Below are positions 2,812 through 26,091 of a stretch of 64,000 nucleotides of DNA, one piece after another (the stretch's first letter is position 1; each line of letters starts with the position of its first letter). The translations under genes were made by a program, and so were the position numbers. The notes beneath the pieces were generated by a model. It worked only from the letters and a program-made list of their open reading frames with translations. It was not told where the DNA came from and made no database searches. This DNA is from Nitrospirota bacterium (GTDB lineage: Bacteria; Nitrospirota; Thermodesulfovibrionia; Thermodesulfovibrionales; Dissulfurispiraceae): NCBI GenBank assembly GCA_963710375.1, contig CAVPZX010000005.1, forward strand, positions 192,001 to 256,000, read 5' to 3'.

Positions 2812-3227
2812 AGAGGGCAAAGGGCGAAGGGCAAAGGGCAAAGGGTTTTACGCTCATAGAATTACTCATGGTTATCACCATTATCGGGATGATGTTCTCC
2901 GTGAGCGTTCCGATTTCCTATTCCATTTACCAGCGCTATCAGGCATCCCTCAAAGCGGAAAAGGTCTTGACCTTTGTCAGCTCCCTGAAGTTGGAGGCCT
3001 TTTTGTACGGACGGGATAGGCTTATCGAGTCAAAGGAGGGCAGGATGCTCATTGACGGGACTGATCCGGGAGGGTTTAATGATATGTTTATCCAGGTAGA
3101 CAACCCCATCACGTTTTACAGGACGGGTACTACTTCCGGGGGTCAGATCAAGGTGTATGCTGATAGCAATACCTTTCTTATAGTAATACAGGCCCCTTTC
3201 GGAGGACTCGTGATGAAATCGGCATAA
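2808..3227 (+). CDS. Minor pseudopilin (GspH-like)
   Basis: Prepilin site G|FTLIELLMVITII; leader peptide is encoded by AGGGCAA repeats. Confidence 0.85.
   Translation: MKRAKGEGQRAKGFTLIELLMVITIIGMMFSVSVPISYSIYQRYQASLKAEKVLTFVSSLKLEAFLYGRDRLIESKEGRMLIDGTDPGGFNDMFIQVDNPITFYRTGTTSGGQIKVYADSNTFLIVIQAPFGGLVMKSA
2814..2845 (+). repeat. 7-nt tandem repeat (AGGGCAA x about 4.5) encoding the prepilin leader
   Basis: agggcaa agggcga agggcaa agggcaa aggg. Confidence 0.9.
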
Positions 3228-3228
3228 T

Positions 3229-3681
3229 ATGGCAAAGGGCAAAGGGCAAAGGGCAAAGGGTAACGAGAGAGGTTTTCTGATCCTTGAGGTCATGATCGCG
3301 AGCCTGATTCTGACCGCCGGTGTCGCAGCGACCATGTATCTTTTCAGGCTCGGATTTCAGTATCTGGAACGGGCGAATGATTCCAACCTGATCTCGTCCA
3401 AACTGCCTCAGGTCATCAACTTCCTGAAGGTGCTCGATATGGAAGCACAGAGCGGGACCGAAGATATGGGTGATGATGTTATAATGCATTGGGACGCCAA
3501 GCTAATCGAGACGGTGCGGCCTGTACATGATACACCTGATGGCAAGGAGTCCCATCCCTTTAATCTGTACCTTTATAAGGTGAACATACGCCTCGATTAT
3601 AAAAATCTGAACAGGGACTACAAAATAAATATATTCAGGAGTTCCAGGCTTAATGAGACTCATTTGCCGCGGGAATTTTAG
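3229..3681 (+). CDS. Minor pseudopilin (GspI-like)
   Basis: G|FLILEVMIASLIL with Glu at +5; position in operon. Confidence 0.8.
   Translation: MAKGKGQRAKGNERGFLILEVMIASLILTAGVAATMYLFRLGFQYLERANDSNLISSKLPQVINFLKVLDMEAQSGTEDMGDDVIMHWDAKLIETVRPVHDTPDGKESHPFNLYLYKVNIRLDYKNLNRDYKINIFRSSRLNETHLPREF
3231..3260 (+). repeat. 7-nt tandem repeat (AGGGCAA) encoding the prepilin leader
   Basis: ggcaa agggcaa agggcaa agggcaa aggg. Confidence 0.9.
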
Positions 3682-4318
3682 AGGATACACATTTATCGAG
3701 GTGCTGGTGGCCATGGCAATTTTCAGCGCCATGGTAACGCTTGCCACCATGGCGCTGGATCAGGGACTGAAGCAGTATCGCGGCCTAATGGAAAAAGGAG
3801 TCAATTTCTGGGACAAGGCCAGGTACATCTGGGTCAACGGCAGCTTCGGTTCCGCGGTCGATTACTATGTGCATAGAGATGGTATGGGCTTTGTACCGTA
3901 TTTCCTCGGTGATGGCGAAAGGATTTCCTATGTGTCTCTGTCTCCTGTCATGGGAGATCTGCCGGTCGTTGTCTGGATCGTGAAGGAGAAAAAAGATAAT
4001 GGACTTTATGCTGTGGTATATTATGAACTGCCTGTTTATACGAAAGATTACAACGAATTGGACAGGGAGTATGTCACAGGCGATTACAAAAAAGGATATT
4101 CCGTGCCGCTGCTGGATGGGGTTACAGATATTAATATGGAATTCTTCGGGTTTGATTTCATGACACGGAAGGCCGTGTGGTCCCCTGACTTTGACGGAAG
4201 CAAAAACAGATCGCTGCCCTCTGCGGTGAAGCTTACTTATGTTTCTGAGAACAAAAAACAGATAATGCTGTTTTGCATCAACACAAACTCCATGAGAAAG
4301 TCAAGTTATAATGAATAA
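3653..4318 (+). CDS. Minor pseudopilin (GspJ-like)
   Basis: G|YTFIEVLVAMAIFS; size and gene order. Confidence 0.82.
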   Translation: MRLICRGNFRGYTFIEVLVAMAIFSAMVTLATMALDQGLKQYRGLMEKGVNFWDKARYIWVNGSFGSAVDYYVHRDGMGFVPYFLGDGERISYVSLSPVMGDLPVVVWIVKEKKDNGLYAVVYYELPVYTKDYNELDREYVTGDYKKGYSVPLLDGVTDINMEFFGFDFMTRKAVWSPDFDGSKNRSLPSAVKLTYVSENKKQIMLFCINTNSMRKSSYNE

Positions 4319-5231
4319 TTATAAGAGGGCCGGGGGTTCCGCCAGCATCCTTGCGTTATTGATAACAGGGGTTATTATTACCGTGGGAATCGGGTTCAAC
4401 TGGCTCGTGAAAGAACACCTGAAGGCTGCCGAGGGAATGAAACGCAAGACCGAAGCGATGCTGACGGCTGTCTCCACTTACAACACCCTCGTATACAGCA
4501 TACTTGCAGGTGTAACGGCTCCTGATCAGGTTGTTTTTATGAACGGGGGGAACCTTCTTGGCGTGAAAAGCATTCCCCTGAATAACGAAGGAGTCAGTGT
4601 TGGCGCTGATATAGAGATAAAGATCCAGGACAGTAACGGCATGATTTCTCTTGCCGGTCCCGACCTTTTGGCCCTGCAAAGGTTGTTGCGCAACGCAAAT
4701 CCTGACCAGGATCAGAGCGCAACAATCATAGACAGCTACCTTGATTGGATTAGCAGGGGCAACATGGTGCACATCAATGGTGCCAAGGAGGCTTATTACA
4801 GGGCCCAGGGTAAACCGTACACTGCCCGGAATTACCCGATGCAGTACAAAGAGGAGTTCGCATTTGTGAGAGGAATGGACCAGGAGCTCTACAAAAAAAT
4901 ATCTCCTTTTGTGACCTTGCTTCCCAATTCAGGCTTTAATCCCAACACAGCCCCTGATCCGGTTCTGGCAGCTTTTCTGGGTATCGACGAGGAAGCAGTG
5001 CAGAACCTTAAGGCATATATGAAGACGGCGCCGCTCACTTCCAACTCTACACTCTTTAATATTGTGCGAAGGACCATAGCCGGGGAAGGATTCGATTTCA
5101 ACCCTTCACGGTTCTGGGATATAACAATAAATGTTGGCAAGCCCGAACCTGTGTATTCTCTCAGGGCTGGAATCGACATAAGATGGAACGAAACATATCC
5201 ATACTCCGTCATTTATTGGGGAAAGGACTGA
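4311..5231 (+). CDS. gspK: Pseudopilin GspK
   Basis: Hydrophobic N-terminus without Glu5; IQDSNGMISL, DSYLDW, ARNYP..KEEFAFVRGM and FNPNTAP motifs typical of GspK. Confidence 0.85.
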   Translation: MNNYKRAGGSASILALLITGVIITVGIGFNWLVKEHLKAAEGMKRKTEAMLTAVSTYNTLVYSILAGVTAPDQVVFMNGGNLLGVKSIPLNNEGVSVGADIEIKIQDSNGMISLAGPDLLALQRLLRNANPDQDQSATIIDSYLDWISRGNMVHINGAKEAYYRAQGKPYTARNYPMQYKEEFAFVRGMDQELYKKISPFVTLLPNSGFNPNTAPDPVLAAFLGIDEEAVQNLKAYMKTAPLTSNSTLFNIVRRTIAGEGFDFNPSRFWDITINVGKPEPVYSLRAGIDIRWNETYPYSVIYWGKD

Positions 5232-6547
5232 TGGAGGGTTGGATGTTTAGGAGATTGGAAGGTTGGAAGCTCGGCAATTTGGCAGCTCGAAAGCTCGGTG
5301 GTTTGGCTAACCCTCTAACCCGCAAGTTCTCCAATCTTCTAATTGGTTACTGGCATAAAGGGGGGGTGGAAATTTACCGGCTTTCCGCCCCAAAAAGTCA
5401 AAGGCTTTCCGGGGGCGCCGGGCCCGCGGAAAGCAAGATCACTCTGTTTGCATCCGGAGGTCTCGACACACTTAAACCTGTCAAAGCATTCGGCAAAATA
5501 GTATTGATTGTGGGGAGAGACCTTTTTCTCCACACAAGGAAAAAGTTTCCCCCGGCATCGTTAGATGATTTGAAGAAAGCTGTAAACCTTGAAATCGGCG
5601 AGTTGTTCCCACTGAAGAGTCCCTCCTTTTTCCTCAATGTTTTTGAGAGGACCGAAGCTTACACCCTGGCTGATATATGGGCGTGGGACAGTTCTGGATA
5701 TGACAACCTGAAGCGTGTGCTCCCCTTTACCTATGTATTGCCGGAAGACATGGCCTTTATATCAGGGGAACCCGAAATCAGTGTTTTGAGCGGCTCTGCC
5801 GGCGACGCCGGTGTCTCCCATTTGCTGGCTCATTCAAAAGAAGGATTTCTCGGCATGTCGTCATTCAGAGGCCGGGTCAGCCGGAGCCACATAGAGAAGC
5901 TTCTCAAGGCGATCAGCAGTCATGCGGAAGAGGTTAAGAGGGTGAACCTTTACGGGGGAGCAGAAGCTGTTACCGCTATTAATGACCTTGGATTCCCGGT
6001 CGTGAAAAAGGAGACCAGGGGGTATCCCGCCTGCCTTGAAAATTTGAGCAGGCTCGATCTTAAACAGTTCAGTGTCCGGACAGAACCGGCTTTTATGGAA
6101 TACATTGATGTCGGCATCAGGTCCGTAATATACCTTTTTGTTGCGTATGGCATATCCCTTATTGTTGCAGGCAGGCATTATGATGCTGCAATCAGTGAAG
6201 TGAAGATAAAGACTGCAAGGCTGACTACGAGCATGTCTGCCGTAATCGTGGGGCAGAAGAAAGATTACGAGGAGGCTGCGGACGAGATGAAGGAAAAGCT
6301 GAAGGGTTGGCGTCCGCCGTTGCCTGTAATGGAGGCGTTGGCCAAAAATCTGCCTGACAAGAGCTATGTGACAAGAATGGTACTTAATGAGACCACACTG
6401 GAGTTGACACTTGCATCGAATGACCCCCTGGCGGTTGTGAAAGCCGTGGGGAGAACTGACGGAGTAAAAACAGTGAAATTGAAGGGCTCGCCTTCGAAAA
6501 ATGATAAAGGGCTTTATACCTTCTATCTTACGGTGGAACTGAAATGA
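5231..6547 (+). CDS. GspL/PilN-like T2SS assembly protein
   Basis: Cytoplasmic domain, one TM segment near residue 300, PilN-like C-terminal domain (ALAKNLPDKSYVTRM). ATG 5231 overlaps the gspK stop (TGATG). Confidence 0.7.
   Translation: MEGWMFRRLEGWKLGNLAARKLGGLANPLTRKFSNLLIGYWHKGGVEIYRLSAPKSQRLSGGAGPAESKITLFASGGLDTLKPVKAFGKIVLIVGRDLFLHTRKKFPPASLDDLKKAVNLEIGELFPLKSPSFFLNVFERTEAYTLADIWAWDSSGYDNLKRVLPFTYVLPEDMAFISGEPEISVLSGSAGDAGVSHLLAHSKEGFLGMSSFRGRVSRSHIEKLLKAISSHAEEVKRVNLYGGAEAVTAINDLGFPVVKKETRGYPACLENLSRLDLKQFSVRTEPAFMEYIDVGIRSVIYLFVAYGISLIVAGRHYDAAISEVKIKTARLTTSMSAVIVGQKKDYEEAADEMKEKLKGWRPPLPVMEALAKNLPDKSYVTRMVLNETTLELTLASNDPLAVVKAVGRTDGVKTVKLKGSPSKNDKGLYTFYLTVELK
5233..5342 (+). repeat. 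Degenerate 8-nt repeat array with inverted arm at the 5' end of the gspL-like gene
   Basis: ggagggtt ggatgttt aggagatt ggaaggtt ggaagctc ...; ttaggagattgga (5247-5259) pairs with tccaatcttctaa (5330-5342). Confidence 0.65.
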
Positions 6548-6551
6548 AGAC

Positions 6552-6654
6552 AGAAGTTGAGAAGTTGCGAAGGTGAGAAGATGAGAGAAAGGATACTGCG
6601 TGAAAATGTGGGTTTGGGGTCTCAACTTCACAACTTCACAATTTCTCAACTTCT
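6552..6654 (+). repeat. Intergenic inverted-repeat hairpin built of 8-nt units (GAGAAGTT/AACTTCTC)
   Basis: 35-nt arms 6552-6586 and 6620-6654; 30/35 Watson-Crick plus one G-U by manual alignment. Confidence 0.9.
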
Positions 6655-6674
6655 ATGTTTACAGCGGCGCTGAA

Positions 6675-10391: not shown

Positions 10392-10434
10392 AGAAGGGGC
10401 AATAGGCTATGGGTGATAGGAAATAAAAAAACGA

Positions 10435-10541
10435 ACCACAGAGGCACTGAGACACAGAGAAAGCAAATGATAGCGAAAAAGGAAAAGACGTTTTCTTTCT
10501 GTATTATGGAGCATACCTCTGTGCCTCTGTGTCTCTGTGGT
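10435..10541. repeat. Intergenic inverted repeat of CACAGAG-type units (MITE/REP-like)
   Basis: accacagaggcactgagacacagag (10435-10459) versus ctctgtgcctctgtgtctctgtggt (10517-10541); 22/25 Watson-Crick plus one G-U. Confidence 0.85.
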
Positions 10542-10775
10542 ATGTTTTTGCAATTGGCAAATTTGGCATCAAAATTGCTCTCTATATAAATAAAATTCAA
10601 GGGTAATAATTTTTTTAGACTCAGTGAAAAAAGGGTTGTTCTTTTTGAATGGATATGGTATATATATCATACTTTGTGTTTTCTATTATATATTTGATCG
10701 GGTTGCAACGGTACTTTAAACATCACGTCCGCGGGAGAGGATTGAGGCGTGGGGTAATAGGGCTGTATTAATCAC

Positions 10776-10804: not shown

Positions 10805-11016
10805 TAGTGCATCTTTAAAGCTTTAGGCAGAGGCGGTAAATGTTTAAAATGAAATTAATCATCGGTTGTTATTTAGGGTTAGAGTAAATGAAATTCAGTA
10901 ATCAAGGAGGTGATGAGAAAAGCCGATCCTTGGGAGAGTAAGGAAGCAGGAAGTGCGAACACTTTGCGGTTATCATCATTATTATTTATTATTTATCAAA
11001 AAAAGGAGGATTGAAA

Positions 11017-12591
11017 ATGACTAAGTTTTTAAAGGTTTCTTTTTTAGCAATGTTGATTGTTGCCGTAATGGCATTGCCGGCCTTTGCAGGCACCATTACA
11101 TTTTGGGGTTCACCTGGCGGTACAAGTGGTGCAGCTAATGTCAAATATTCAGTTGCCTTGGAGGCAATGAATGCTGCGAGAAATTTCACTATAACCAGTT
11201 CATCCGGGACAACCGGCTCCGGATACGCTAATGCGCCATTAAAAATCACCCCCGGCCAGCAATTGGCCAGCGGCTCATTGTTGACTATCACATTGGCAAA
11301 TGCCGCGTTTAATGCCGGAGCTACCGGAAGCGTACTTTTGTGCGCTGCTACCAGCGATACCGCGTCAGTAGACGTCCCTGTTGCGGCCCAGCAGCCTGCA
11401 GCAAACAGCGCAAGCTTGTCGTGGGTATTAGGTACTACAGTATCCACCGGCCAATTTCTCTTTGTGACAACGTCTGGGACAACATCTTGCAGTAACAGTA
11501 ATGCAAGCTTGAGTGTTCAGTTCCAGCCTGTCTCATCAGCAGCCTTGGCCTCGGTTTCTTATACTGTTTCCCTGAACTCAACCACGTATGACCAAAAATC
11601 GGCTGTCAATTTCGCTAACTTTGCTAGGGAGTTCACAACAGCTTACGCAAATTTACCTTCTACAATTGATTATACGACGAACAGCGCTTCAAACGGAGCC
11701 CATTTTGTTGTAGGTACAGGAGCTAATGCTGCCAACGCGGGTACGGCGAATATTGCTCGCGGCACGGTAGATTTTAGTGCTGAGGCCGTCGGCGCCACCG
11801 GTGCCAGCCTTTCAGTAGCAGGTATATTGTCCCTTCAGGATTCAGCATCCTGGCAGGGTGTGAAGGATGCTTATGTGCTTGGTAGTGCTGGTGGTGGTAA
11901 TAATTGTGCCGCCGCTGGGCCTGGAGCTAATAACGCGATAGTACAAGGCGCTGCAAATCTTGGCACTGGAACAGTGAACCTGGCTGTATCTTCAGCCGCA
12001 TTTAATGGTGCGGCGTCCTATGCTGCGGTTGCGTGCGTTGATGTGCTGGGCAATACTGTTCTTCAGTCCAGGTCGATCAAGGGATTCTACACTGTCAACG
12101 GTGGAGTCGCTGATGTTGATTCCGCGACACTCCTTATGACCTGGTCACCTAACGGTTATCAGGCAATAATTCCGTATATTAACGGATCCTCGACATTCGA
12201 CACGATATGCACCATCAGTAACCAGGGCGCAACTGCTGCACCTGCGACTGCTACTTTACTTTCAGCAGAGAGCATAGGCGCGGCTGGAGGATCTATTCCA
12301 ACAGGTGCACAGGGTATTAGCCTGGGTACAGTGCCGGCTAATGGACTAATACGTGTAGACTTTACTTCATCAATTACGCCTTACACGTATAGCGGTGGTG
12401 TTGAGACCGCAGGCACGGCAGTTGCGATTCCTGGCGTCCAGGGTAATGACAGGATGTCTGTCATACTGAATGTCGGAGCAGGTGTAACTGCGATTCAGAC
12501 AAATTGCATTCAAACGGATACCCTTGCTGGTGTCAAGAGAAATGTGCCGGTGCTGACGCAAACCAGTGGCACAGTTCCATGGCAGCAGTAA
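11017..12591 (+). CDS. Secreted cell-surface protein, probable S-layer subunit
   Basis: SD AAGGAGGA; Sec signal ending PAFA; A/G/S/T/N/V-rich with few charged residues; own promoter and terminator; adjacent to T2SS. Confidence 0.7.
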   Translation: MTKFLKVSFLAMLIVAVMALPAFAGTITFWGSPGGTSGAANVKYSVALEAMNAARNFTITSSSGTTGSGYANAPLKITPGQQLASGSLLTITLANAAFNAGATGSVLLCAATSDTASVDVPVAAQQPAANSASLSWVLGTTVSTGQFLFVTTSGTTSCSNSNASLSVQFQPVSSAALASVSYTVSLNSTTYDQKSAVNFANFAREFTTAYANLPSTIDYTTNSASNGAHFVVGTGANAANAGTANIARGTVDFSAEAVGATGASLSVAGILSLQDSASWQGVKDAYVLGSAGGGNNCAAAGPGANNAIVQGAANLGTGTVNLAVSSAAFNGAASYAAVACVDVLGNTVLQSRSIKGFYTVNGGVADVDSATLLMTWSPNGYQAIIPYINGSSTFDTICTISNQGATAAPATATLLSAESIGAAGGSIPTGAQGISLGTVPANGLIRVDFTSSITPYTYSGGVETAGTAVAIPGVQGNDRMSVILNVGAGVTAIQTNCIQTDTLAGVKRNVPVLTQTSGTVPWQQ

Positions 12592-15918: not shown

Positions 15919-16027
15919 GAAGTTGAGAAATTGAGAAGATGTGAAGATGAGAAAAAGAAATGTAAGCCTGATTTGTTGTCGCGCACCTTCTCACCTTCTC
16001 AGCTTCCCATCTTCGGATCGCCGAAGG
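15919..16027 (+). repeat. 8-nt-unit inverted-repeat hairpin immediately upstream of the four-helix-bundle gene
   Basis: gaagttgagaaattgagaagatgtgaagatgagaa (15919-15953) and caccttctcaccttctcagcttcccatcttc (to 16014), then cttcgg-atcg-ccgaag. Confidence 0.85.
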
Positions 16028-16031
16028 TGTG

Positions 16032-16433
16032 ATGGTGGGCAATAGTCAGAAAATAAAAAGTGTTAGGGATTTGGATGTTTATAAGATGGCTTTCAATGCG
16101 GCAATGGACATTTGGCAGATAACAAACGGTTTTCCCAAAGAAGAAAAATATTCTCTTGTAGATCAAATAAGGCGTTCTTCAAGATCTGTATGTTCAAATC
16201 TTGCAGAAGCGTGGCGAAAGAGGCGATATAAAGCCGTGTTCAAGAATAAGTTGACTGATGCTATGCAAGAGGCTTCTGAAACGCAGACATGGCTGGAGTT
16301 CAGTGTTGCTTGTAAATATGTTGATCAAAATAAATTTGATGACTTTGATCAAAAATATGAACATATATTAGCTATGTTGAATAATATGGACTTGAAAGCT
16401 GAATCCTTCTGCTTCTCAACTTCTGATAAATAA
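16032..16433 (+). CDS. Four helix bundle protein (23S rRNA IVS-encoded protein family)
   Basis: DLDVYK.AF...FPKEEKYSLVDQIRRSSRSVCSNLAEAWRKRRY...EASETQTWLEF family signature. Confidence 0.93.
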   Translation: MVGNSQKIKSVRDLDVYKMAFNAAMDIWQITNGFPKEEKYSLVDQIRRSSRSVCSNLAEAWRKRRYKAVFKNKLTDAMQEASETQTWLEFSVACKYVDQNKFDDFDQKYEHILAMLNNMDLKAESFCFSTSDK

Positions 16434-17638
16434 TGTTTAGGGACGTATATAGAGGTAAGCAAGTATTAATCACTGGTCACACGGGATTCAAAGGCTCTTG
16501 GCTTGCCCTGTGGCTCAGAGAGTTAGGAGCGAATATAATCGGTTATTCCCTTGATCCACCTACAAACCCCAATCATTTTGATTTGCTAGCCTCTTCTCAG
16601 GTTCTCACCTTCTCATCTTCTCAACTTCCCAACTTCATCTCTATTTTCGGAGATATACGGGATGTAAAGAAGCTGAATCAGACCTTTCAGAACTATAAGC
16701 CTGATATAGTCTTCCACCTCGCTGCACAACCTCTCGTCAGGTATTCATATAAACATCCGCTCGATACATTTGAGACAAATGTGATAGGGACAATAAATGT
16801 TCTTGAAGCTTGCAGACAGACTGAATCAGTCAGGGCAGTAGTAAATATAACGAGCGACAAGTGCTATGAAAACAAAGAATGGGTATGGGGCTATCGTGAG
16901 AGTGACCCGTTTGGCGGTTACGACCCCTACAGCGCATCAAAAAGTTGCGCAGAGCTTGTGACTAACTGTTACAGGCGCTCTTTCTTTATAACTGAAACTG
17001 AGAAGTTGAGAAGGTGTGAAGGTGAGAGTAAAGCCGAAGGACTCACAACTTCTCAACTTCTCAACTTCACAACTTCAGTCCTTTTAGCCAGCGCAAGAGC
17101 GGGCAATGTCATAGGCGGCGGAGATTGGGCAGCGGACAGATTGATTCCCGACATTATGAGGGCGGTCAGCCGGAATAAGAAGGTTGTTATCAGAAATCCC
17201 AAGTCAACCCGTCCCTGGCAGCATGTGCTGGAGCCGTTGTCAGGTTATCTGGCGCTTGGGCAGAAGCTCTTGGAAGGGAAATCGGAATTTGCCGATGGGT
17301 GGAATTTTGGGCCTGATGATGAAAGCAACATATGTGTTGAAGAAGTTGCAGAAAAGATGACCAGCTTCTGGCATAAAATTGGTTACCAACGCAAACCATT
17401 TAAACATCCAAGCCTCCGGCCATCCGACCCTCATGAGGCTGGTCTGTTAAAACTTGACTGCTCGAAAGCCCATTCAAGGCTTGAGTGGAAACCTGTCTGG
17501 GATATTAAGAAAACGCTTGTAATGACCGCTCAATGGTATAAAGAGTTTTACGAACGTGATGGAATAATGAGTCAGAAGGATTTGGATGAGTATATTCTGA
17601 ATGCGAAGGAAAAAGGTTTGCGTTGGGCAGTTGATTGA
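16433..17638 (+). CDS. rfbG: CDP-glucose 4,6-dehydratase with two repeat-derived in-frame insertions
   Basis: TGHTGFKGSWL, HLAAQPLVR, TSDKCYEN, DPYSASK, RAGNVIGGGDW, RPWQHVLEPL. Confidence 0.96.
   Translation: MFRDVYRGKQVLITGHTGFKGSWLALWLRELGANIIGYSLDPPTNPNHFDLLASSQVLTFSSSQLPNFISIFGDIRDVKKLNQTFQNYKPDIVFHLAAQPLVRYSYKHPLDTFETNVIGTINVLEACRQTESVRAVVNITSDKCYENKEWVWGYRESDPFGGYDPYSASKSCAELVTNCYRRSFFITETEKLRRCEGESKAEGLTTSQLLNFTTSVLLASARAGNVIGGGDWAADRLIPDIMRAVSRNKKVVIRNPKSTRPWQHVLEPLSGYLALGQKLLEGKSEFADGWNFGPDDESNICVEEVAEKMTSFWHKIGYQRKPFKHPSLRPSDPHEAGLLKLDCSKAHSRLEWKPVWDIKKTLVMTAQWYKEFYERDGIMSQKDLDEYILNAKEKGLRWAVD
16593..16636 (+). repeat. Pyrimidine-rich 8-nt tandem array in frame inside rfbG
   Basis: cttctcag gttctcac cttctcat cttctcaa cttcccaa cttc encodes SSQVLTFSSSQLPNF. 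Confidence 0.88.
16991..17079 (+). repeat. In-frame 8-nt-unit hairpin inside rfbG
   Basis: 39-nt arms (16991-17029 and 17041-17079), 32/39 complementary, 11-nt loop. Confidence 0.92.
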
Positions 17639-17662
17639 GCAGGTTTGTCGGAAGACTCCTAC

Positions 17663-19108
17663 ATGGAAAGAAGAGAACAACTAAAACAGGAAATATTTGA
17701 GAGAATAAGGGCATTTTATCAGCTTGTGCATGAGACATCCCACAATGCAGAGTTTGTTGCAGGCAAAAGTCGCATAAACTATGCAGGCCGGGTATTTGAT
17801 GAAGAAGAGATGATTAATCTTGTCGATAGTTCCCTTGATTTCTGGCTTACAACAGGCAAATATGCCGAAAGGTTTGAAAAAGAATTTGCAGATTTCCTTG
17901 GAGTGAAATATTGCTCTCTTGTCAATTCAGGGTCTTCAGCTAATCTCCTCGCGTTTATGGCGTTAACATCTCCGAAGCTCGGTGATAGAAGCATTCAGAG
18001 GGGCAATGAGGTCATAACAGTAGCAGCAGGTTTCCCAACCACAGTCGCTCCCATCATTCAGTATGGCGCTGTGCCGGTATTTGTTGATGTTACGCTGCCG
18101 GCATACAACATAGATTGTTCGCAGCTCGAAAATGCACTATCAGATAAAACAAAGGCTGTAATGGTCGCGCATACCCTCGGCAATCCCTTCGATATCCGGA
18201 CGGTAAAAACGTTCTGCGATAAACATAATCTCTGGCTCATCGAGGATAACTGCGACGCTCTTGGCAGTAAATACCGAAGGTGGGAAGTTGAGAAGGTGAG
18301 AAGTTGTGAACGTGAGAAGGCAGGCCCAACTTCACAACTTCACAACTTCCCACCTTCGGAGCTTTACGGCTACACCGGGACTTTCGGGCATATTGGAACG
18401 TCGAGTTTTTATCCGCCCCATCATATGACTATGGGAGAAGGCGGCGCTGTTTATACGAACGATATTCAGCTCAAAGGGATAATAGATTCTTTCCGTGACT
18501 GGGGCAGGGACTGCTGGTGTGTGTCGGGTAAAGACGATACATGCAAAAAACGCTTTAAATGGCAGCTCGGAGAACTTCCTTACGGATATGATCACAAATA
18601 TATCTATTCCCATTTCGGGTATAACTTAAAGGTTACCGACATGCAGGCGGCTATAGGCTGTGCGCAACTCGAAAAGCTGCCCTTTTTTATTGAAGCAAGA
18701 AAGAAAAACTGGAGTCTTCTGAGGGACGGGCTGCATGACCTTTCAGATAAGTTTATCCTGCCTGAGCCTACTGCGAATTCAGAGCCATCCTGGTTTGGGT
18801 TCCTGTTGACTGTGAAGGAGAGCGCGGGTTTTACGAGGGATGAGATAGTGAATTATCTTGAATCAAATAACATCCAGACACGTATGCTCTTTGCAGGAAA
18901 TATACTGAAGCATCCCTGCTTCGATGAAATGAGAAAAACCGGCCACGGTTTCCGTGTCATTAGGGACTTACCGGTAACTGACCGCATAATGCGCGACAGT
19001 TTTTGGGTTGGGGTCTATCCGGGGATGAAAGAAGAGGCGATCGAATATGTCATGCAAAAGATAAAAGAGTATGCAAGACATGAACAATCGATTCCCGGTT
19101 TAGGGTAA
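17663..19108 (+). CDS. rfbH: CDP-4-keto-6-deoxyglucose 3-dehydrase (E1) with in-frame hairpin insertion
   Basis: NSGSSANL, AAGFPTT, SFYPPHHMTMGEGG (His replacing the Schiff-base Lys), RDWGRDCWC, GYDHKY. Confidence 0.95.
   Translation: MERREQLKQEIFERIRAFYQLVHETSHNAEFVAGKSRINYAGRVFDEEEMINLVDSSLDFWLTTGKYAERFEKEFADFLGVKYCSLVNSGSSANLLAFMALTSPKLGDRSIQRGNEVITVAAGFPTTVAPIIQYGAVPVFVDVTLPAYNIDCSQLENALSDKTKAVMVAHTLGNPFDIRTVKTFCDKHNLWLIEDNCDALGSKYRRWEVEKVRSCEREKAGPTSQLHNFPPSELYGYTGTFGHIGTSSFYPPHHMTMGEGGAVYTNDIQLKGIIDSFRDWGRDCWCVSGKDDTCKKRFKWQLGELPYGYDHKYIYSHFGYNLKVTDMQAAIGCAQLEKLPFFIEARKKNWSLLRDGLHDLSDKFILPEPTANSEPSWFGFLLTVKESAGFTRDEIVNYLESNNIQTRMLFAGNILKHPCFDEMRKTGHGFRVIRDLPVTDRIMRDSFWVGVYPGMKEEAIEYVMQKIKEYARHEQSIPGLG
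18274..18359 (+). repeat. In-frame 8-nt-unit hairpin inside rfbH
   Basis: 33-nt arms (18274-18306 and 18327-18359), 30/33 complementary, outer 17 bp perfect. Confidence 0.93.
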
Positions 19109-21199
19109 TATTTCATTCAGCAATTGCCGGGTTTTTTGGTCATCCGGCTTTATCTTTAACCTTGTCATCAATTGAATGCGCGCATTTTCTATAATATCCG
19201 GTCTCAGGCGCAGGGCAGTTTCGAATTCATTTTTGGCCTTGTCAAGTCTGTCGCTGTCGTAATAAACAAGGCCAAGATTAAAATGTGCTTCTGCGTAATC
19301 GGGCGCAAGTTTAATGGCAATCAGATACTGCTCAATAGATTTGTCAGGCATGTTGATGGCATGATAGGCAATGCCGAGATTATTATGTGCCTCAGCATAA
19401 TCAGGCTTGAGTTTAATGGCAATGATATATTGCTCAATAGCATTGTCAAGCATGTTGCGACTTTTATAAAAATTACCAAGTCTGGCATGTGCATTTGCGT
19501 AACGGGGGAATCTTTTAACTGTATCTTCCCACATTTTTTTGCTGTCTCCATATAGATTGTTCTGCAAATGAGCTGCGACTGACAGAATGCTTATAATAAG
19601 GGCGAGCGTCACTAGTATCACATTGCCGGCTTTCTGTGAACGAATTTTTTCTTTCAGCAGAAATACCCCCGTAACTGTGCAAATGATTACCCCGACCGAG
19701 GGCAGATACATTCGATACGTTTCAATAAGCCTCGGCGTAGGTATAATGCTCGATTCAACTGAAAGGGTGATAAAGAACCACAATATACCGAAACCCATCA
19801 AACGAAAAGCAGGACTAAGGGCAGAGGACTGAGAGGCGAGGACTGAGGACTGAGGACTGAGAGACGAGGACTGAGAGGCGAGGACTGAGGACTGAGGACT
19901 GAGAGACGAGGACTGAGAGGCGAGGACTGAGTTTTCGTCTTCGCGCTTTGCCCTCAGTCCTTTGCCCTTAGTCCTCAGTCCTGGACCCTCTTCCTTTGGC
20001 CCTTTCCACTCAGTCCTCAGTCCTTCGCCCTCAGTCCTCAGTCCTCGCCTCTCTTTTTTCTGCACTAAATAAATCCCCAGTCCAAATAGCGCTGAGAGAA
20101 ACACAAATGAAACGGATACCTGCGGTTGAAAAAAAGACTTAAACACAGGGTACTCATAATTGAGTTCCAGGTTTGCCGGGAAAAACAGCATTCGCAGGTA
20201 AGTGACAATGACCCTGAACTGGGTGAAAAAATACTCTCCCCGCGAGTAGTCCCAGGTGAATCCGGCCATATATGAGCCCGGGTCAATAAGGCTGGGATTA
20301 ATCAGTTGTGTGCCGCGTACTTCGGTCACTGTCGGCATGCTCATAATAGTCAGAGGTATGATGCAAAGTGAAAGCAATAATGGAGCAAGAACGAGCATCC
20401 TCTTCTTAATGCCGCCATTAAAAAAACAAAACTCGTACAACGTTATCACAAAGGGCAGAGTAAACGCATTCTCCTTTGTTTTCATTGCCAGGACCGCTGA
20501 AAGAAGGGATATGGCGTACATAGTCCGGCGCCGGGCTTTATGATGGTCAGGAGCCTCCAATCTGAACTTAATATATGCTGTGAGGGAAAGGAGATAGAAA
20601 AAAGCGGCGAGAGAGGCATAACGTTGCATGACATACGTAACCGCCGCTGTCTGCAGCGGGTGGACGGCAAACAGAGCGGCGGAGAAGAAGGCAATCACTG
20701 CCGGATTGCCTGAACTTGAGAAATTGAGAACTTGTGAAGGTGTGCCCTTTGCCCTATGCCCTATGCCTTTCATGTAAGGTGTTCTGAATGTCAATAGAAC
20801 AAGCAAATAAACCAGGATTGTATTGGCGATATGAATGGCAATATTGACAATATGGTAGCCGGTCACCGATAAACCGTTTATACGGTAGTTGAGCGCAAAG
20901 GTGAGATGCGAGATGTAGCGGGATATGAAAAAACGGTAATTCTCAAACCCTTGAGCTGTTGAGGGGTGAAGGAAATAATTAAGGTCCTTGATAATAGGCT
21001 CGTTAACAATATGCATCTCTTCATCCCACTGAAATGGGACATTCAAGGCATTGGAGTAAATGATCAGAATAAGCAGAGACAGACAAGCGATATGCACAAA
21101 GGAGTTATATGTCAATGACAGCGGACTGAACGATGCATGTGCAGGGGGAAGGTCATTGTGACGGATCAGCTTATTTGTTTTCTTACCCTTGTTTTTCAT
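19100..21199 (-). CDS. TMTC-like membrane glycosyltransferase (GT-C) with C-terminal TPRs, paralog 1
   Basis: YSNAL..PFQWDE, YHIVNIAIH, AVHPLQTAAVTY, KTKEN, YRMYLPS, TPR repeats (YAEAHNNLG). Confidence 0.8.
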   Translation of the reverse strand: MKNKGKKTNKLIRHNDLPPAHASFSPLSLTYNSFVHIACLSLLILIIYSNALNVPFQWDEEMHIVNEPIIKDLNYFLHPSTAQGFENYRFFISRYISHLTFALNYRINGLSVTGYHIVNIAIHIANTILVYLLVLLTFRTPYMKGIGHRAKGTPSQVLNFSSSGNPAVIAFFSAALFAVHPLQTAAVTYVMQRYASLAAFFYLLSLTAYIKFRLEAPDHHKARRRTMYAISLLSAVLAMKTKENAFTLPFVITLYEFCFFNGGIKKRMLVLAPLLLSLCIIPLTIMSMPTVTEVRGTQLINPSLIDPGSYMAGFTWDYSRGEYFFTQFRVIVTYLRMLFFPANLELNYEYPVFKSFFQPQVSVSFVFLSALFGLGIYLVQKKERRGLRTEGEGLRTEWKGPKEEGPGLRTKGKGLRAKREDENSVLASQSSSLSPQSSVLASQSSSLSPQSSVLASQSSALSPAFRLMGFGILWFFITLSVESSIIPTPRLIETYRMYLPSVGVIICTVTGVFLLKEKIRSQKAGNVILVTLALIISILSVAAHLQNNLYGDSKKMWEDTVKRFPRYANAHARLGNFYKSRNMLDNAIEQYIIAIKLKPDYAEAHNNLGIAYHAINMPDKSIEQYLIAIKLAPDYAEAHFNLGLVYYDSDRLDKAKNEFETALRLRPDIIENARIQLMTRLKIKPDDQKTRQLLNEILP
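19811..20050 (-). repeat. In-frame 7-nt (GGACTGA/TCAGTCC) inverted repeat array in paralog 1
   Basis: Encodes RRGLRTEGEGLRTEWKGPKEEG...SVLASQSSSLSPQSS; purine-rich arm followed by its complement. Confidence 0.92.
20712..20770 (-). repeat. Mixed 7-nt (AGGGCAT/A) and 8-nt (TTCTCAA) in-frame insertion in paralog 1
   Basis: Minus strand reads aaggcatagggcatagggcaaagggcacaccttcacaagttctcaatttctcaagttc. Confidence 0.8.
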
Positions 21200-21217
21200 A
21201 AAAGATCCCTGACCGTT

Positions 21218-23867
21218 TCAGCGTGAGATTGCATTCAATAACTGACGGGCTATCTGGTCATCAGGCTTTATCTTTAATCTCGCTATCAACTCTCTGCGCG
21301 CATTTTCCAGTTGTCCCATATTATAGTAGAGGACTCCGAGATTAAAATGAGCTGTTTCATTATCCGGTTGGAGGCGTATGACAGTTTGTAATTCATTCAC
21401 GGCCTTGTCAGGCATGTTGAGGGACTGATAAAGAATAGCGAGATTATTGTGCGCTTCCACATAGTTGGGCTTCTCCTGTATTGCGGCCAGATAGTGTTCA
21501 GTTGCCTTGCCAGACATGCCCTGATCTTTATAGACATTGGCTAGATTATAATGCGCCTCAGGGTAATCAGGCTTCAGATTAATGGCAGTCTGAAACTCTT
21601 TTATAGCCTTGTCAGGCATGTTGAGGGCCTGATAAACAGCTCCCAGATTATTATACGCTTCTATAAAATCGGGTTTTAGATTAATGGCAGTCAGAAACTC
21701 TTTTATAGCCTTGTCAGGCATTTTGAGGGCCTGATCATAGAGGACGCCAAGATTGTAATGCGCCTTCCAGTGCCCAGGGGCAAGACTTATTGCAGTCAGA
21801 TATTCCTTTAAAGCAGCATCGGGCATACCGAGGTCTTGATAGCTGTTGCCGAGACCGAGATGCGCTTCAGTGGAATCAGGATTAATTTTCAAGGCAAGCT
21901 GAAACTGTTCCGCAGCCTTGTCCGACATGCGATGGTGTCGGTAGGCCAACCCAAGATTATAATGCACTCTTTCTTTTGCAGGGAATTTTAACGCGTCTTC
22001 TTTCCATAACTTGACTTCGTCTCTCCACATATCATTGCGCATATATGTAGCAACTGACAGTACGCCTGCAGCAAGTGCAAGAATGGTTACTATCACCCTA
22101 CCGGCTTTTGGGGAACGCAGATTTTCTTTCAGCAGAAATGCACCGGTAACAACGCAAACAAATATCCCCATTGAAGGCAGATACACGCGGTGTTCAAAAA
22201 TCACATCGGCGATGGGTATGATGCTCGACTCCACTGAGAGAGTGATGAAAAACCACAATATCCCGAAACCCATCAACTTAAAGGCAGGACTGAGGGCAGA
22301 GGACTGAGAGGCGAGGACTGAGGACTGAGGACTGAGTGCCAAGGACTGAGAGACGAGGGCAGAGGACTGAGGACTGAGAGACAAGGACTGAGAGGCGAGG
22401 ACTGAGGACTGAGTGTCAAGGACTGAGGACTGAGCAGAGAGGACTGAGTTTTGGTCTTCGATCTTTGCACTCAATCCTCTGCCCTCAGTCCTCAGTCCTG
22501 GATCCTCTTTCCTTTGGCCCTTTCCACTCAGTCCTCAGTCCTCTGTCCTCAGTCCTTGTTTTTTTCTCGCTCCACAGCACTAAATAAATGCCCAGCCCGA
22601 AAAGCGCGGCAAGAAACATAAACGAAAAGATCACCTGGGGGTAAAAGAAAGATCTATAAATAGGATAGTCATAGTCGACATTCTGTCCTGCGGGGAAAAA
22701 CAGCAGCCGCATATATCTCACAATTACTGAGAACTCCGTCATCAGGTATTGCCATGGCGTCGTCCTTGTCTGCACTGTTATCTTGCTCGCATCCGACAAT
22801 ACTTTCCCCAACGGCTGGCTCACATTCAGCAAGCTCAAAGGAATGATGACCACTGTTGCCAGCAGCGGCAAGGCCCATAGAGCCCTCCTGAGCAGATTGC
22901 CTCTGCCGAAGAACACCAGTTCGTACAACACAACAATAAACGGCAGTGTAAAGGCTATCTCCTTTGTCATCATCGCAAGCACAGCCGAAACAATAGAAAT
23001 CCCATAATAAAAATATGGCATGTATTTTCGTTTTTCCCGGCTACCGGCCACCGGCCCCTGGCCACTGTCTTTTGCTTCTTGCCCTCCGCCCTCAGTCCTC
23101 AGTCCTTGGTCCTCTGCCCTCAGTCCTCGCCTCTCAGTCCTCAGTCCTTGGTCCTCTGCCCTCAGTCCTCTGCTCTCAGTCCTCAGTCCTTGGTCCTCCG
23201 CCCTCAGTCCTCGCCTCTCAGTCCTCAGTCCTTGGTCCTCTGCCCTCAGTCCTCGCCTCTCAGTCCTCAGTCCTCTGCCCTCAGTCCTTGTTTTATTACC
23301 CTCAGTCCTTGACTTTATATATGTCACTAATGAAAGGAGATAAAAAAATGAAGCGAGGGACGCAAGCCTCTGCACTATATAAGTGACCGCCTGAGTTTGG
23401 ATAGGATGCACCGCAAACAAGACAGCAGAGAAGAAGGCGATCAGCCCGGAATCGCTGAGTACTAAAGACTGAGGACTTAGGACTGAGGGCATAGGACTGA
23501 GGACTGAGGACTGAGGACTCATGGCCGGTGTTCTGAATGTAAATAGCACAAATAAATAAACCAGCATGGAGTTAGCAATATGAATTGCAAGATTGACTAT
23601 ATGGTAGCCGGTCACATTTGAACCACCCAAGCTGTAGTTCAGGGAAAATGTCAGATACCCGATGAATCGTCTAGAAAAATGTTCATACCCTGTGGAACTG
23701 AACAGAAAATTTCCGATATGACGCACTATACTGTTATCAATTATGTTGAATTCATCGTCAAATACAAACGGCGCATGAAAAGTATTAGAATAACAAATCA
23801 GGCATAATAGAGCTATAATGCCGGCATGTAAGAGCTGGGAATTATGATTTTGATTTGGAAATTTCAT
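21218..23867 (-). CDS. TMTC-like GT-C + TPR protein, paralog 2; split by a +1 frameshift near 22508-22510
   Basis: ORFs 22485-23867 (FVFDD, AVHPIQT) and 21218-22474 (EHRVYLPS, TPRs) join if one T is removed from ctctttcc; both paralogs read ctcttcc here. Confidence 0.8.
22286..22556 (-). repeat. 7-nt inverted repeat array in paralog 2 (site C)
   Basis: ggactga units 22286-22447 followed by tcagtcc units to about 22556. Confidence 0.92.
23090..23309 (-). repeat. 7-nt array with 42-nt higher-order repeat in paralog 2 (site B)
   Basis: GLRTE(R/S)RGLRAEDQ occurs four times in tandem. Confidence 0.93.
23455..23519 (-). repeat. 7-nt array in paralog 2 (site A)
   Basis: Encodes SPQSSVLSPMPSVLSPQSLVLS. 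Confidence 0.88.
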
Positions 23868-26091
23868 TCAGCAACTGTCGGACATTTTGGTCGTTAGGTT
23901 TTATCCTTAATATCGTTGTCAATTCCCTGCGTGCCTTTTCTTTCTGTCCCCTCTCATAATAGAGTTCTCCAAGATTGGAATGCGCCTCTATATAATCGGG
24001 CTTCAGTTTAATGGCAATCAGATAATATTCTATGGCCTTGTCGGGCATTTTCTGGTCTTCATAGATTACGCCAAGATTATTATACGCCTCTGCGCAGTCA
24101 GGCTTTAGTTTAACAGCAATCAGATACTCTTTTAAAGCCCTTCCACGCATGCTGCGGGACTGATAAAACACGCCACCCAGATCAAGATGGGCCTCCACAT
24201 AATCAGGCCTCAGTTCTACGGCAGTCATAAACTCTTTTATAGCTTTCTCGGGCATTTTACGATCTTTATATATATTGCCAAGGTTATAATGTGCCTCAGG
24301 TAAGTCCGGATTAAGCTTGGAAGCAATCATAAACTGCTCAATCGCCTTGTCAGGCATATTACGGTCTCGGTAGATAACCCCGAGGTTATTGTATTCCTCT
24401 GCAGAATCAGGTTTCAGCCCAATGGCAATCCGGTACTGCTCTATGGCTTCATCGAACTTTTTTTGAGACTGATAGAGGCGACCAAGATTATAATGCGCCC
24501 TTTCCTTGGCAGGTGATTTTGCCACGACGTCTTTCCACAGTCTTATACTGTCTCCCCACACTTCGTTCCGCAGATACGTAGCGACCGACAAAACTCCTAT
24601 AGCAAGGGCCAGCATCAAGATTATTACCCTGCCGTACCTGGGCGAACGCACCTTTTCTATTAACAAAAAGGCCCCTGTAACTGTACAAATAATCATTCCT
24701 ATTGAAGGCAGATAAGCACGGTGCTCGTAAATTACATCAGTGATAGGTATTATGCTTGACTCGACCGAAAGAGTGATAAAAAACCACAATATACCAAAAC
24801 CCATCAAACGAAAAGCAGGACTGAGAGGCGAGGACTGAGAGGCGAGGACTGAGGACTGAGCAGTTAGGACTGAGTTTTGGTCTTCGCGCTTTGCACTCAG
24901 TCCTTTGACCTCAGTCCTCAGTCCTGGACCCTCTTCCTTTGGCCCTTTCCACTCAGTCCTCAGTCCTCTGTCCTCAGTCCTTGCTTTATTACCCTCAGTC
25001 CTCAGTCCTTGGTCCTTCGTCTTCAGCACTAAATAAATGCCCAGCCCGAAAAGCGTCACCAGAAACAGAAGCGACAGCATCACCTGGGGATAGAAGAAAG
25101 ATCTATACACCGGATAGTCATAATCGAGGTTCTGCCCTGCAGGGAAAAACAGCAGCCGCACATACGTCACGATCACAGTGAACTCTGTTATCAGATACTG
25201 CCACCGCGTCATGCTTGTTCCCGCCGCAGTCACCTGATTCACATCCGACAACACCTTCCCCAACTGTTGGCCCACATTCAGCATGCTCAGTGGAATGATG
25301 ACCACTGTTGCCAGCAGCGGTAAGGCCCATAGCGTCCTCTTAATCAGATTGCCTCTGCCGAAAAACACCAACTCGTAAATCACAATGATAAACGGCAGCG
25401 TAAAGGCTATCTCCTTTGTCTTCATCGCCAGCACCGCAGAGATAATAGAGATGCTGTAGAAGAAGAGATACCGGAAGTTGCCCTTTGCCCCGCCTGAGGC
25501 GGGCCCTCTGCCCTCTGCTATTAGCCTGAACCGAACATAAAAGTACAACGAGGCAACATAAAACAAAGCTGCCAAAGACGCAAGCCGCTGCACTATGTAT
25601 GTCACTGCCTCGGTTTGGATAGGATGCACCACAAATAACGCGGCAGAAAAAAAGGCAATCAGATTAGAATTTCTGAGGACCGAGGACTGAGGACTGAGAG
25701 GCAAGGACTGAGGACTGAGAGACGAGGACTGAGGGTTCATTAACGGAGTCCTGAATGTAAGCACCACCAATCCATAAACCAGAAGCGCACAGGCCAGATG
25801 TATGGCAAGATTTACTACATGGTAGCCGGTCACATCAAGGCCGCCCAAGCGGTAGTTCAGGGCGAATGTCAGAAACCCTATAAAACGGCGGGGATTATTT
25901 TCATATCCTTTGGAGCTGAAGATAAAATTGCCGATATCATGGACTACCCTGTTATCCCTTATAGAGTATTCGTCGTCAAATATAAACGGCACATGGAAAC
26001 TGTTGGAATAGACGATTATTCCTGCCAAAATTATCAGGAAGGGATAAAAAAAATGATGGGCCGTTGCTGAATTCTTTGCCTTCCGAAACAT
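23842..26091 (-). CDS. TMTC-like GT-C + TPR protein, paralog 3
   Basis: YSNSF..PFIFDD, YHVVNLAIH, VHPIQTEAVTYIVQR, MKTKE, EHRAYLPS, multiple TPRs. Confidence 0.82.
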   Translation of the reverse strand: MFRKAKNSATAHHFFYPFLIILAGIIVYSNSFHVPFIFDDEYSIRDNRVVHDIGNFIFSSKGYENNPRRFIGFLTFALNYRLGGLDVTGYHVVNLAIHLACALLVYGLVVLTFRTPLMNPQSSSLSPQSLPLSPQSSVLRNSNLIAFFSAALFVVHPIQTEAVTYIVQRLASLAALFYVASLYFYVRFRLIAEGRGPASGGAKGNFRYLFFYSISIISAVLAMKTKEIAFTLPFIIVIYELVFFGRGNLIKRTLWALPLLATVVIIPLSMLNVGQQLGKVLSDVNQVTAAGTSMTRWQYLITEFTVIVTYVRLLFFPAGQNLDYDYPVYRSFFYPQVMLSLLFLVTLFGLGIYLVLKTKDQGLRTEGNKARTEDRGLRTEWKGPKEEGPGLRTEVKGLSAKREDQNSVLTAQSSVLASQSSPLSPAFRLMGFGILWFFITLSVESSIIPITDVIYEHRAYLPSIGMIICTVTGAFLLIEKVRSPRYGRVIILMLALAIGVLSVATYLRNEVWGDSIRLWKDVVAKSPAKERAHYNLGRLYQSQKKFDEAIEQYRIAIGLKPDSAEEYNNLGVIYRDRNMPDKAIEQFMIASKLNPDLPEAHYNLGNIYKDRKMPEKAIKEFMTAVELRPDYVEAHLDLGGVFYQSRSMRGRALKEYLIAVKLKPDCAEAYNNLGVIYEDQKMPDKAIEYYLIAIKLKPDYIEAHSNLGELYYERGQKEKARRELTTILRIKPNDQNVRQLLNEISKSKS
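24818..25016 (-). repeat. 7-nt inverted repeat array in paralog 3 (site C)
   Basis: Encodes DQGLRTEGNKARTEDRGLRTEWKGPKEEG...SVLTAQSSVLASQSS. Confidence 0.92.
25673..25734 (-). repeat. 7-nt array in paralog 3 (site A)
   Basis: Encodes PQSSSLSPQSLPLSPQSSVLR. Confidence 0.88.

Follow-up and report, generated by a model that had tools for sequence, protein, structure and literature searches.

The window analyzed here is a stretch of 64,000 nucleotides (nt) of a Nitrospirota bacterium of the family Dissulfurispiraceae (assembly GCA_963710375.1, contig CAVPZX010000005.1, positions 192,001 to 256,000), whose first 26 kb carry a dense set of degenerate 7- and 8-nt repeat tracts surrounding a gene for a four-helix-bundle protein of the TIGR02436/PF05635 family. 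About 216 paired elements are scattered over the whole genome, most of them starting at a stop codon, and the tracts appear to be their local representatives. Of the eleven repeat families in this genome, six each flank a TIGR02436 gene of their own. Moreover, the variable positions of the repeat units have changed at orthologous sites in a relative whose cognate protein has diverged. The explanation tentatively favored here, which falls somewhat short of being probable, is that the elements are selfish DNA doublets similar to REPINs, in which a cognate Avd-like pentamer, binding some four units, would determine the unit code and, helped by a host enzyme, would insert and rewrite arms.

Repeat Families and Anatomy of the Elements

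Repeat families were learned by a script from the genome to which the window belongs (G000; 3.19 Mb, 98.8% complete). It carries 564 arms of 11 families (F1 to F11) with periods of 6, 7 or 8 nt, and the same family scan found no arm in 1.6 Mb of DNA simulated with a 5th-order Markov model; families F2, F4 and F5 overlap neighboring families. Genome-wide, 216 pairs and 112 solo arms were counted. Within 150 nt, all 216 pairs run from a purine-rich arm to a pyrimidine-rich arm and none runs the other way, a strict polarity that is asserted only for the learned families and for this distance: solo arms at longer range follow each other in both orders (five of each), and a family-free scan labelled 7 of 173 pairs pyrimidine-first by purine content. 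A preliminary description of the locus had related this order to the transcribed strand. The order says nothing about transcription, as an inverted pair reads identically on either strand, and what stands is the inward polarity itself.

Each half of an element opens with an A-rich leader, continues with about four units and a partial one, and closes with an A-rich stretch; the halves meet in a loop with a median length of 36 nt that is A-rich and then T-rich. Arms of period 6, 7 and 8 have median lengths of 27, 32 and 35 nt, corresponding to 4.5, 4.6 and 4.4 units, so that the number of units, not the length of the arm, is fixed. The core adenines of the units are invariant, and few arms are identical, with 98 distinct arms among 101 in F3 and 85 among 106 in F1. 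Adjacent units are no more alike than shuffled ones in F1, F3, F6, F7, F8 and F9. In three of nine families, pairing of an arm is stronger with its own partner than with a swapped one (p = 0.006–0.03); in the other six, among them the 8-nt family of the window (p = 0.999), it is not. A G-U-type asymmetry between 5′ and 3′ arms left no clear sign (one of five positions at p = 0.035). Loops are mostly unique, 6 of 139 having a neighbor at ≥85% identity (median 60%). Capture of local DNA as their source was considered and rejected, since the 27 of 139 loops with a non-self genome match include four with a match shown outside elements, all of 17 nt and at chance level.

Two further repeat structures were encountered. 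Two F1 elements (G000:C2:686597 and C2:1070228) are identical, as are their flanks, and lie within a larger duplication. A second palindromic family, with longer repeats that have no relation to the tandem arms, is present in G000 (C1 near 7850, C4 near 160037 and C5 near 136607) and at the orthologous places in two relatives, G005 and G008; it sometimes flanks F3 elements that share loop sequence and may carry them as passengers.

Position Relative to Genes and Stop Codons

Gene positions were taken genome-wide from a simple caller written for this work (2992 genes), by which some small genes are missed. With respect to these, 204 pairs are intergenic, 8 lie within genes and 4 at gene edges. 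The intergenic pairs are distributed over co-directional, convergent and divergent junctions as 159:21:24, against a background of 2280:353:350, and divergent junctions hold pairs in proportion to their number. A role as transcription terminators was rejected, convergent junctions not being enriched (21 of 204 pairs vs. 353 of 2983 junctions). A directional rule does emerge at the upstream gene, as 126 of 162 co-directional elements begin within 10 nt of its stop codon, or overlap or supply it, and in long junctions 31 of 46 elements start there compared to 5.8 expected. The family-free scan finds the same start for 110 of 173 elements in G000, compared to 5.6% of random non-coding points, a control that is somewhat low as it includes unannotated short genes; the corresponding counts are 14 of 34 in G005 and 24 of 41 across four more genomes. 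The rule also extends to the arms that flank TIGR02436 genes in other phyla, of which 35 of 54 lie at an upstream stop (59 examined, 5 without an upstream open reading frame [ORF]).

The earlier impression of a locus-wide family tied to surface and glycan genes does not hold at this scale. Arms occur in 99 of 134 bins of 23 kb (35 bins are empty), and elements also occupy junctions that we take, from the translations, to be those of ribosomal-protein, riboflavin and other housekeeping genes. In-frame insertion into such genes had likewise been put forward. It describes the window, where the in-gene inserts are in frame and two of the tracts encode prepilin leaders, and is the exception genome-wide, where 8 of 216 pairs lie in genes.

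Four-Helix-Bundle Genes and Their Cognate Families

The four-helix-bundle gene noticed among the tracts is a clear member of its family (TIGR02436, 103.6 bits vs. a cut-off of 24; PF05635, 115 vs. 33.8), and its score with the Avd profile NF033474 is below cut-off (27.4 vs. 80 bits). G000 has six TIGR02436 genes over cut-off, a seventh weak match lying inside a longer unrelated ORF, and each of the six is flanked by a different repeat family, namely F4, F3, F1, F8, F10 (the window gene) and F5. The window gene is situated between rfbF and rfbG and the other five among protein genes, none of them in an rRNA gene. Relatives have the same gene as an arm-gene-arm cassette between rfbF and rfbG. 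G009 shares the 19-kb synteny without the gene and without a detected tract, and retains only decayed peptides in rfbG.

The association extends over large phylogenetic distances. Among 80 relatives of the window protein from more than 10 phyla, the flanks have period 8 in 68, period 7 in 4 and no period in 8, and the upstream arm is of the purine type in 65 of 65 cases and the downstream arm of the pyrimidine type in 48 of 52. The window's own family flanks 32 of 44 relatives at ≥64% identity, none of the 36 below that value and none of 32 proteins from other subfamilies. On a quick tree of 91 proteins, from which rows with stops, short rows and rows without a single period were left out, flank period changes 9 times compared to 23.3 times when shuffled. 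The period tree alone would not prove recognition, for kin share labels and arms travel with the gene, and more weight is given to the gene-less copies: the 8-nt element has 26–43 matches in the 4 of 41 genomes whose protein is ≥78% identical and 0–6 in the other 37. The proposal that an element/protein system is tied to four-helix-bundle genes is supported by these data, six genes matching six families and both period and unit tracking the protein subfamily across phyla; the companion idea of an association with GxxExxY genes fails, as no such gene is found in G000.

Proximity to the cognate gene, also suggested at the outset, varies with the family. Of the 39 F10 arms, 10 are no more than 30 kb away from the gene (p = 4e-6), F5 arms cluster as well (p = 3e-5) and F8 arms weakly, and arms of F1, F3 and F4 do not. 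The F8 gene (G000:C5:269669-270480) has purine arrays on both sides and a pyrimidine arm only about 500 nt downstream, and most detected F8 arms lie 55 kb away from it, in the TPR genes of the window described below.

An alignment-based model of the window protein (mean predicted local distance difference test score, 93.6), used in place of a poor single-sequence fold (46), matches Xcc0516, BT_0352 and Avd, with template modeling (TM) scores of 0.67–0.80 to 2gsc and 2rld and of 0.73 to Avd at 9% identity. Residues Q46, N57, E60 and E84 are invariant in 51 sequences. By analogy with the five-chain entries 2gsc and 2rld and with the available text of PMC4990558, the protein would be a homopentamer. 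In another genome, G016 (L250-L262), seven PF05635 matches were noted, four with an internal stop and most with cognate arms, and no spread of elements in the 60 kb sampled.

Turnover and Rewriting at Orthologous Sites

Two relatives with coding flanks 89–91% identical to those of G000 were compared over about 1.2 of 3.4 Mb (G005) and 0.4 of 2.9 Mb (G008). Only 18 of 78 orthologous elements are kept in them. Junctions in which the element of G000 is not kept may be occupied by another family: in the first 0.4 Mb of G005, an element of another family occupies 7 of 26 junctions filled in G000 vs. 7 of 101 that are empty there (p = 0.009), the figures for G008 being 2 of 11 and 5 of 101 (p = 0.14). 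As to a target-site duplication, such as an IS-derived MITE would leave, the one clean site (rplR-rpsE, with a 98-nt insert) shows a 3-nt overlap in G005 and G008, and other sites are ambiguous at 10% divergence.

G005 is a natural experiment on change of the cognate protein, its F1 protein being 95% and its F3 protein 55% identical to that of G000. At kept sites (seven elements per family), the variable positions have changed in 21 of 26 F3 units vs. 7 of 29 F1 units (p = 4e-5, the units not being independent), and the cores of the units have changed by 7% and 5%, respectively. At the last F3 position, C is present in 268 of 302 units of G005 and in 94 of 382 units of G000, and the spectrum at this position in each genome matches that of the arms beside the genome's own F3 gene. 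Differences from a G005 C lead to A in 11 of 14 cases; in the coding flanks, transitions constitute 56% of the differences involving C or G. At some sites, such as element 38, the loop ends and flanks are nearly intact and most units differ.

The Locus in the Window

Tandem Repeats Finder and an autocorrelation scan recover the reported tracts, at least 18 with periods of 7 and 8 between 2814 and 25734. This span is the densest part of the genome-wide feature, with 24 merged arms compared to a mean of 3.9 per 23-kb bin and no bin among the 134 reaching 24. Eight of nine window elements tested fold with minimum free energy z scores of −3.7 to −10.8, and Rfam has no match in positions 1–30000. 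The genes concerned are a type II secretion cluster, a secreted protein gene, rfbF, rfbG and rfbH, and three paralogous membrane proteins with tetratricopeptide repeat (TPR) tails, whose NCBIfam matches are to TPR only.

All six junction tracts checked begin 0–4 nt past a stop codon. On the plus strand, solo purine arms of the 7-nt family F5 lie 2 nt past the stop of a gspF-like gene (2814–2845) and 3 nt past an upstream stop (3231–3263), and encode the leaders of a GspH-like prepilin and of the following prepilin, respectively. A degenerate 8-nt pair without significant folding (5232–5342; z −0.6) begins at the stop of a gspK-like gene and overlaps the next N-terminus, and an F10 pair (6552–6654) starts 4 nt past its upstream stop. 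The tract at 10395–10548 combines a weak 7-nt purine arm, recognized by eye 3 nt past the gspD stop, with a pair of 8-9-nt units (10437–10543; z −6.8) from a family that occurs too seldom for the script to learn. Directly upstream of the four-helix-bundle gene (16029–16433, plus strand, 134 amino acids), an F10 pair (15919–16014) begins 4 nt past the rfbF stop, its left arm being the upstream arm of the cassette; a remnant of the downstream pyrimidine arm persists in the last codons of the gene (16413–16425), where relatives have full arms.

The remaining tracts lie within genes. In frame are a solo pyrimidine F10 arm (16593–16636) and an F10 pair (16999–17077) in rfbG (16433–17638), an F10 pair (18276–18357) in rfbH (17645–19108), an expanded pair of the 7-nt family F8 (19811–20046) in the membrane/TPR gene 21199–19100, and a chimera that joins a 7-nt F5 arm to an 8-nt F10-like arm (20712–20767). 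An expanded F8 pair (22286–22556) lies in the middle membrane/TPR gene (23867–21218), which is split as assembled. The pair is followed by a long solo F8 array (23083–23311), next to a short 7-nt tract (23037–23067), a solo F8 arm (23455–23519), an F8 pair (24817–25021) in the third membrane/TPR gene (26091–23842), a short decayed 7-nt arm (25490–25518) and, as the last tract of the cluster, a solo F8 arm (25673–25734), all of them in frame.

No stop interrupts the inserts of rfbG, rfbH and the three membrane/TPR genes once one base of the middle gene is corrected. Short-read contigs of two runs from two studies (X2 and X3) lack one base at 22508, removal of which opens the frame for 882 codons, so that this base is probably an assembly error; a further single-base assembly error elsewhere is revealed by all four short-read runs compared, and two single-base differences from short-read contigs occur at L144:10281 and 18750. 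Phase variation at 22508 was consequently dismissed, as was splicing or bypassing of the inserts, given that every insert compared is in frame and stop-free and that the sole frameshift is probably this error. Orthologs supply empty sites as well. The rfbH site is empty in G009, G015 and G036 and holds four different in-frame inserts in G000 to G003, one of them from another family, and further sites in rfbG and rfbH are filled in some genomes and empty or decayed in others, always in frame. Judged from their frames, the inserts look translated and tolerated. On the coding strand of rfbG and rfbH, the solo arms are of the pyrimidine type, as would be expected if the purine strand carries stop triplets; genome-wide, solo in-gene arms split 12 to 10. 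In G001, G002, G015 and G036, the rfbH frame extends about 120 residues upstream into what we presume to be a PemK/MazF-type domain (L002, L004, L010 and L011), an extension that is absent in G000, G003 and G009.

In line with the earlier remark that no tract follows 25.8 kb, no arm of a learned family occurs between 25.7 kb and window position 78,460. This stretch of 52.7 kb is one of only 8 gaps of at least 50 kb among 534. Positions 26000–64000 contain about 30 long ORFs, almost all on the plus strand, and may represent a glycan cluster acquired not long ago. Next to the type II secretion genes, positions 11011–12591 encode a 526-residue protein rich in Ala, Gly, Ser and Thr, with a signal-peptide-like start and no NCBIfam match. 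It is 32–39% identical to its counterparts in congeners, whose gspE and gspF are 86–93% identical, and may be S-layer-like.

Possible Mechanisms

In the explanation tentatively favored here, the cognate protein would likely form an Avd-like pentamer that binds some four units of each arm, and would likely seed and rewrite arms by means of an enzyme borrowed from the host; DNA rather than RNA would be its main substrate. Arms would be written or converted unit by unit instead of being copied as whole elements. The gene-bearing arm-gene-arm form may be the horizontally moving master, and the in-frame copies may be passengers tolerated in protein loops and leaders. Of the two functions initially suggested, spreading of the tracts fits better than an action on RNA structure, since swapped partners pair as well in most families, a clear G-U-type asymmetry is lacking and divergent junctions hold their share of pairs. 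A role in RNA keeps some plausibility from the start of the elements at stop codons. A bolder version of the same idea, which we regard as unlikely, makes TIGR02436 pentamers the sequence-specifying subunits of a reaction that writes repeats: where a break occurs just past a stop codon, each free 3′ end would gain about four degenerate units of the family and an A-rich tail, the ends would be joined, and a new paralogue would rewrite old arms genome-wide in its own code. In that version, fixed polarity, independent arms and unique mirror loops would all follow from the extension and joining of free ends.

Several observations weigh against the favored explanation. The F3 loops have diverged by 21% compared to 10% for F1, and some kept F3 sites may for this reason be re-insertions; the same F3 shift would also be explained by selection for binding to the changed protein. 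Adjacent units are more alike than expected by chance in F2, F4, F5, F10 and F11, possibly reflecting mixed subfamilies. At least nine F3 elements have loop sequence in common, some with flanks shared with another repeat, so some copying of whole elements does occur. Across 10 kb containing several elements, only 2 bases distinguish a 16-kb contig from run X1, and no population variation of arms appears in short-read contigs, which drop rare variants. The correspondence with genes is imperfect. G000, G002 and G003 form one clade, so that the co-occurrence of gene and 8-nt element does not amount to four independent cases, and five of the eleven families have no detected cognate gene in a genome that is 98.8% complete, the F2 type having one in G007. 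The gene may be neither necessary nor sufficient, because pairs exist without it (five in 40 kb of G004, which is 81% complete and has no gene match; F4 in G005 and G008, which have no F4 gene) and genes exist without pairs (two to seven genes and no pair in 60 kb each of G007, G010 and G016); G012, G017 and G018 have neither. A catalytic partner was likewise not found: searches of G000 gave no reverse transcriptase (RT; PF00078), Ku or GxxExxY gene and its single Y1 transposase (PF01797) has no arm within 2 kb, and searches for RT, Ku and SbcD did not separate genomes with spread from those without. Finally, according to the available text of Rehm et al. (2015; PMC4692102), 83% of the repeats of Xanthomonas keep their gene context between two species, a much slower turnover.

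A different reading, possible but less likely, takes the arms as binding sites of a regulator useful to the host, with the pentamer on the purine arm or hairpin of the mRNA behind the stop codon serving 3′-end protection, segmental stability, termination or reinitiation, and with mutation and selection reshaping the arms once the protein has changed. It accounts directly for the position at stop codons and for conserved cores (5–7% changed vs. 10–21% in loops), a core figure that is biased low as kept elements are defined by detectable arms. The literature offers precedents: Avd binds an RNA stem-loop sequence-specifically (10.1101/2023.10.23.563531, PMC6182149), E. coli repetitive extragenic palindromic (REP) sequences within 15 nt of a stop stall ribosomes and stabilize upstream mRNA (cited in PMC5082802), most Xanthomonas repeats are transcribed (PMC4692102), and heptamer repeats affect expression of recF and recO in Nostoc (10.1101/2022.06.06.494920). 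Nevertheless, the loss or replacement of 77% of orthologous elements at about 10% coding divergence is fast for useful sites, both arms are equally conserved though an mRNA has only one purine strand, 24 pairs lie between divergent genes, and the origin of a four-unit inverted doublet at an empty site is left unexplained.

Two further readings are less probable still. The elements could be free-living relatives of the 23S rRNA intervening sequences (IVSs), cut from mRNA by RNase III at the paired arms and re-inserted, as RNA bound by the Avd-like protein, through an RT acting in trans. The Coxiella IVS indeed combines the same protein family with a terminal stem cut by RNase III (available text of PMC4990558), Avd is the partner of an RT in diversity-generating retroelements (DGRs) according to the portions consulted of 10.1101/2023.10.23.563531 and PMC6182149, an RNase III gene is present in all five genomes tested, G000 included, and RTs are present in 7 of 9 congeners. 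This reading is nonetheless improbable, for G000 itself has no RT match, several genomes tolerate full hairpins in rfbG and rfbH, an arm's own partner usually pairs no better than a swapped one, and the shared loops predicted by RNA copying are confined to the 6 of 139 noted above. The least likely reading, a very doubtful one, regards the arms as passive relics that were carried along by cassettes and multiplied through slippage and recombination in a genome without SbcCD, the protein being uninvolved. No SbcD match over cut-off was found in any of five genomes, including G000, duplications of 42 nt have plainly enlarged the F8 arrays of the TPR genes, and families without genes and genes without spread would be natural outcomes. 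It is difficult to reconcile, however, with a unit number fixed across periods, a polarity of 216 to 0, the lack of similarity between adjacent units in six families and an F3 spectrum that has changed genome-wide in keeping with the cassette arms of the respective genome.

Should the link between protein and repeat be borne out, two old puzzles would meet, one being the pairs of 6-8-nt repeats known from Xanthomonas, cyanobacteria and numerous further bacteria, the other the function of the widespread S23/IVS proteins with the Avd fold, and the long-unexplained 7-base repeats of bacteria would gain a testable cause. A code of one gene for one repeat, with six pairs in one genome, offers a direct specificity matrix for purified proteins. 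A protein that, in addition, directed insertion or rewriting would represent a new route to dispersed repeats and to the addition of peptides to proteins; in the bolder, repeat-writing version, dispersed repeats would be made and edited by a protein-coded process free of transposase, from which the bacterial heptamer repeats would originate.

Comparison with Known Systems

Such repeats and the TIGR02436/S23 protein family are each already known. A literature search that largely excluded subscription journals and judged most matches from their listings found no paper linking 6-8-nt repeats to the four-helix-bundle family. The available text on the heptamers of Beggiatoa (PMC4679880) does not mention a helix bundle.

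Several systems share part of the features described here. On the one hand, the 23S rRNA IVSs with an ORF (S23p; Coxiella and Leptospira) enclose a member of the same PF05635 family within a terminal stem, according to the accessible portion of PMC4990558; the present elements differ in lying between or within protein genes, in having stems made of tandem arrays and in existing as hundreds of gene-less copies. On the other hand, DGRs (PDB entries 4dwl and 8ub7 for Avd) have in common with them the protein fold, a pentamer in the solved relatives and variation at defined positions of a fixed sequence, and the accessible text of 10.1101/2023.10.23.563531 and PMC6182149 describes a pentameric Avd that binds one RNA stem-loop, five protomers contacting it in the former. 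They differ in that G000 has no RT, its core adenines are invariant and the Avd profile is under cut-off; no template/variable repeat pair was seen, in the absence of a search aimed at one. Rickettsia palindromic elements are an example of palindromic DNA tolerated in frame at protein loops. Here, in-gene copies make up about 4% of pairs, length and family vary between genomes and a cognate gene exists.

A close analogy in terms of organization is provided by REPIN-RAYT systems, which, in the consulted text of Bertels and Rainey (2011; PMC3116915), are extragenic inverted doublets that decay to singlets and insert beside elements already present. Every repeat group there has its own single-copy gene, flanked by members of that group; here, 6 of 11 families flank a gene in this way and the other 5 lack a detected one. 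In both cases doublets outnumber singlets and are extragenic (here 216 pairs vs. 112 solo arms, with 204 pairs intergenic). The differences are that the partner here is an all-helical Avd-like protein with no known chemistry rather than an HUH/Y1 transposase, and that the arms are degenerate tandem arrays, rarely near-identical between copies, instead of palindromic REPs.

A close analogy in terms of sequence is provided by the heptamers of Xanthomonas and the short tandemly repeated repetitive sequences (STRRs) of cyanobacteria, the latter described in the accessible part of PMC2670836. Four-unit heptamers, fixed inverted pairs and nearness to stop codons have already been reported in Xanthomonas (Rehm et al., 2015; PMC4692102, available text), and the modal four units, the fixed inverted orientation and the purine- or G-rich strand near the stop are the same here. 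The present genome differs by its eleven coexisting families of period 6-8 and by faster turnover. The main text of PMC4692102 reads the heptamers of Xanthomonas and Nostoc as G-quadruplex sequences and does not mention the helix-bundle protein; in the elements described here, no GGG run occurs within any of the 11 consensus units, and one arises in F5 only across unit boundaries. Yet a link is contained in its supplement 2, not discussed in the main text, where a four-unit arm is placed 6 nt past the bccP stop and overlaps the start of XCC0516. What is new here is this XCC0516 link, the six pairs of gene and family in one genome and the protein-dependent change of arms at orthologous sites.

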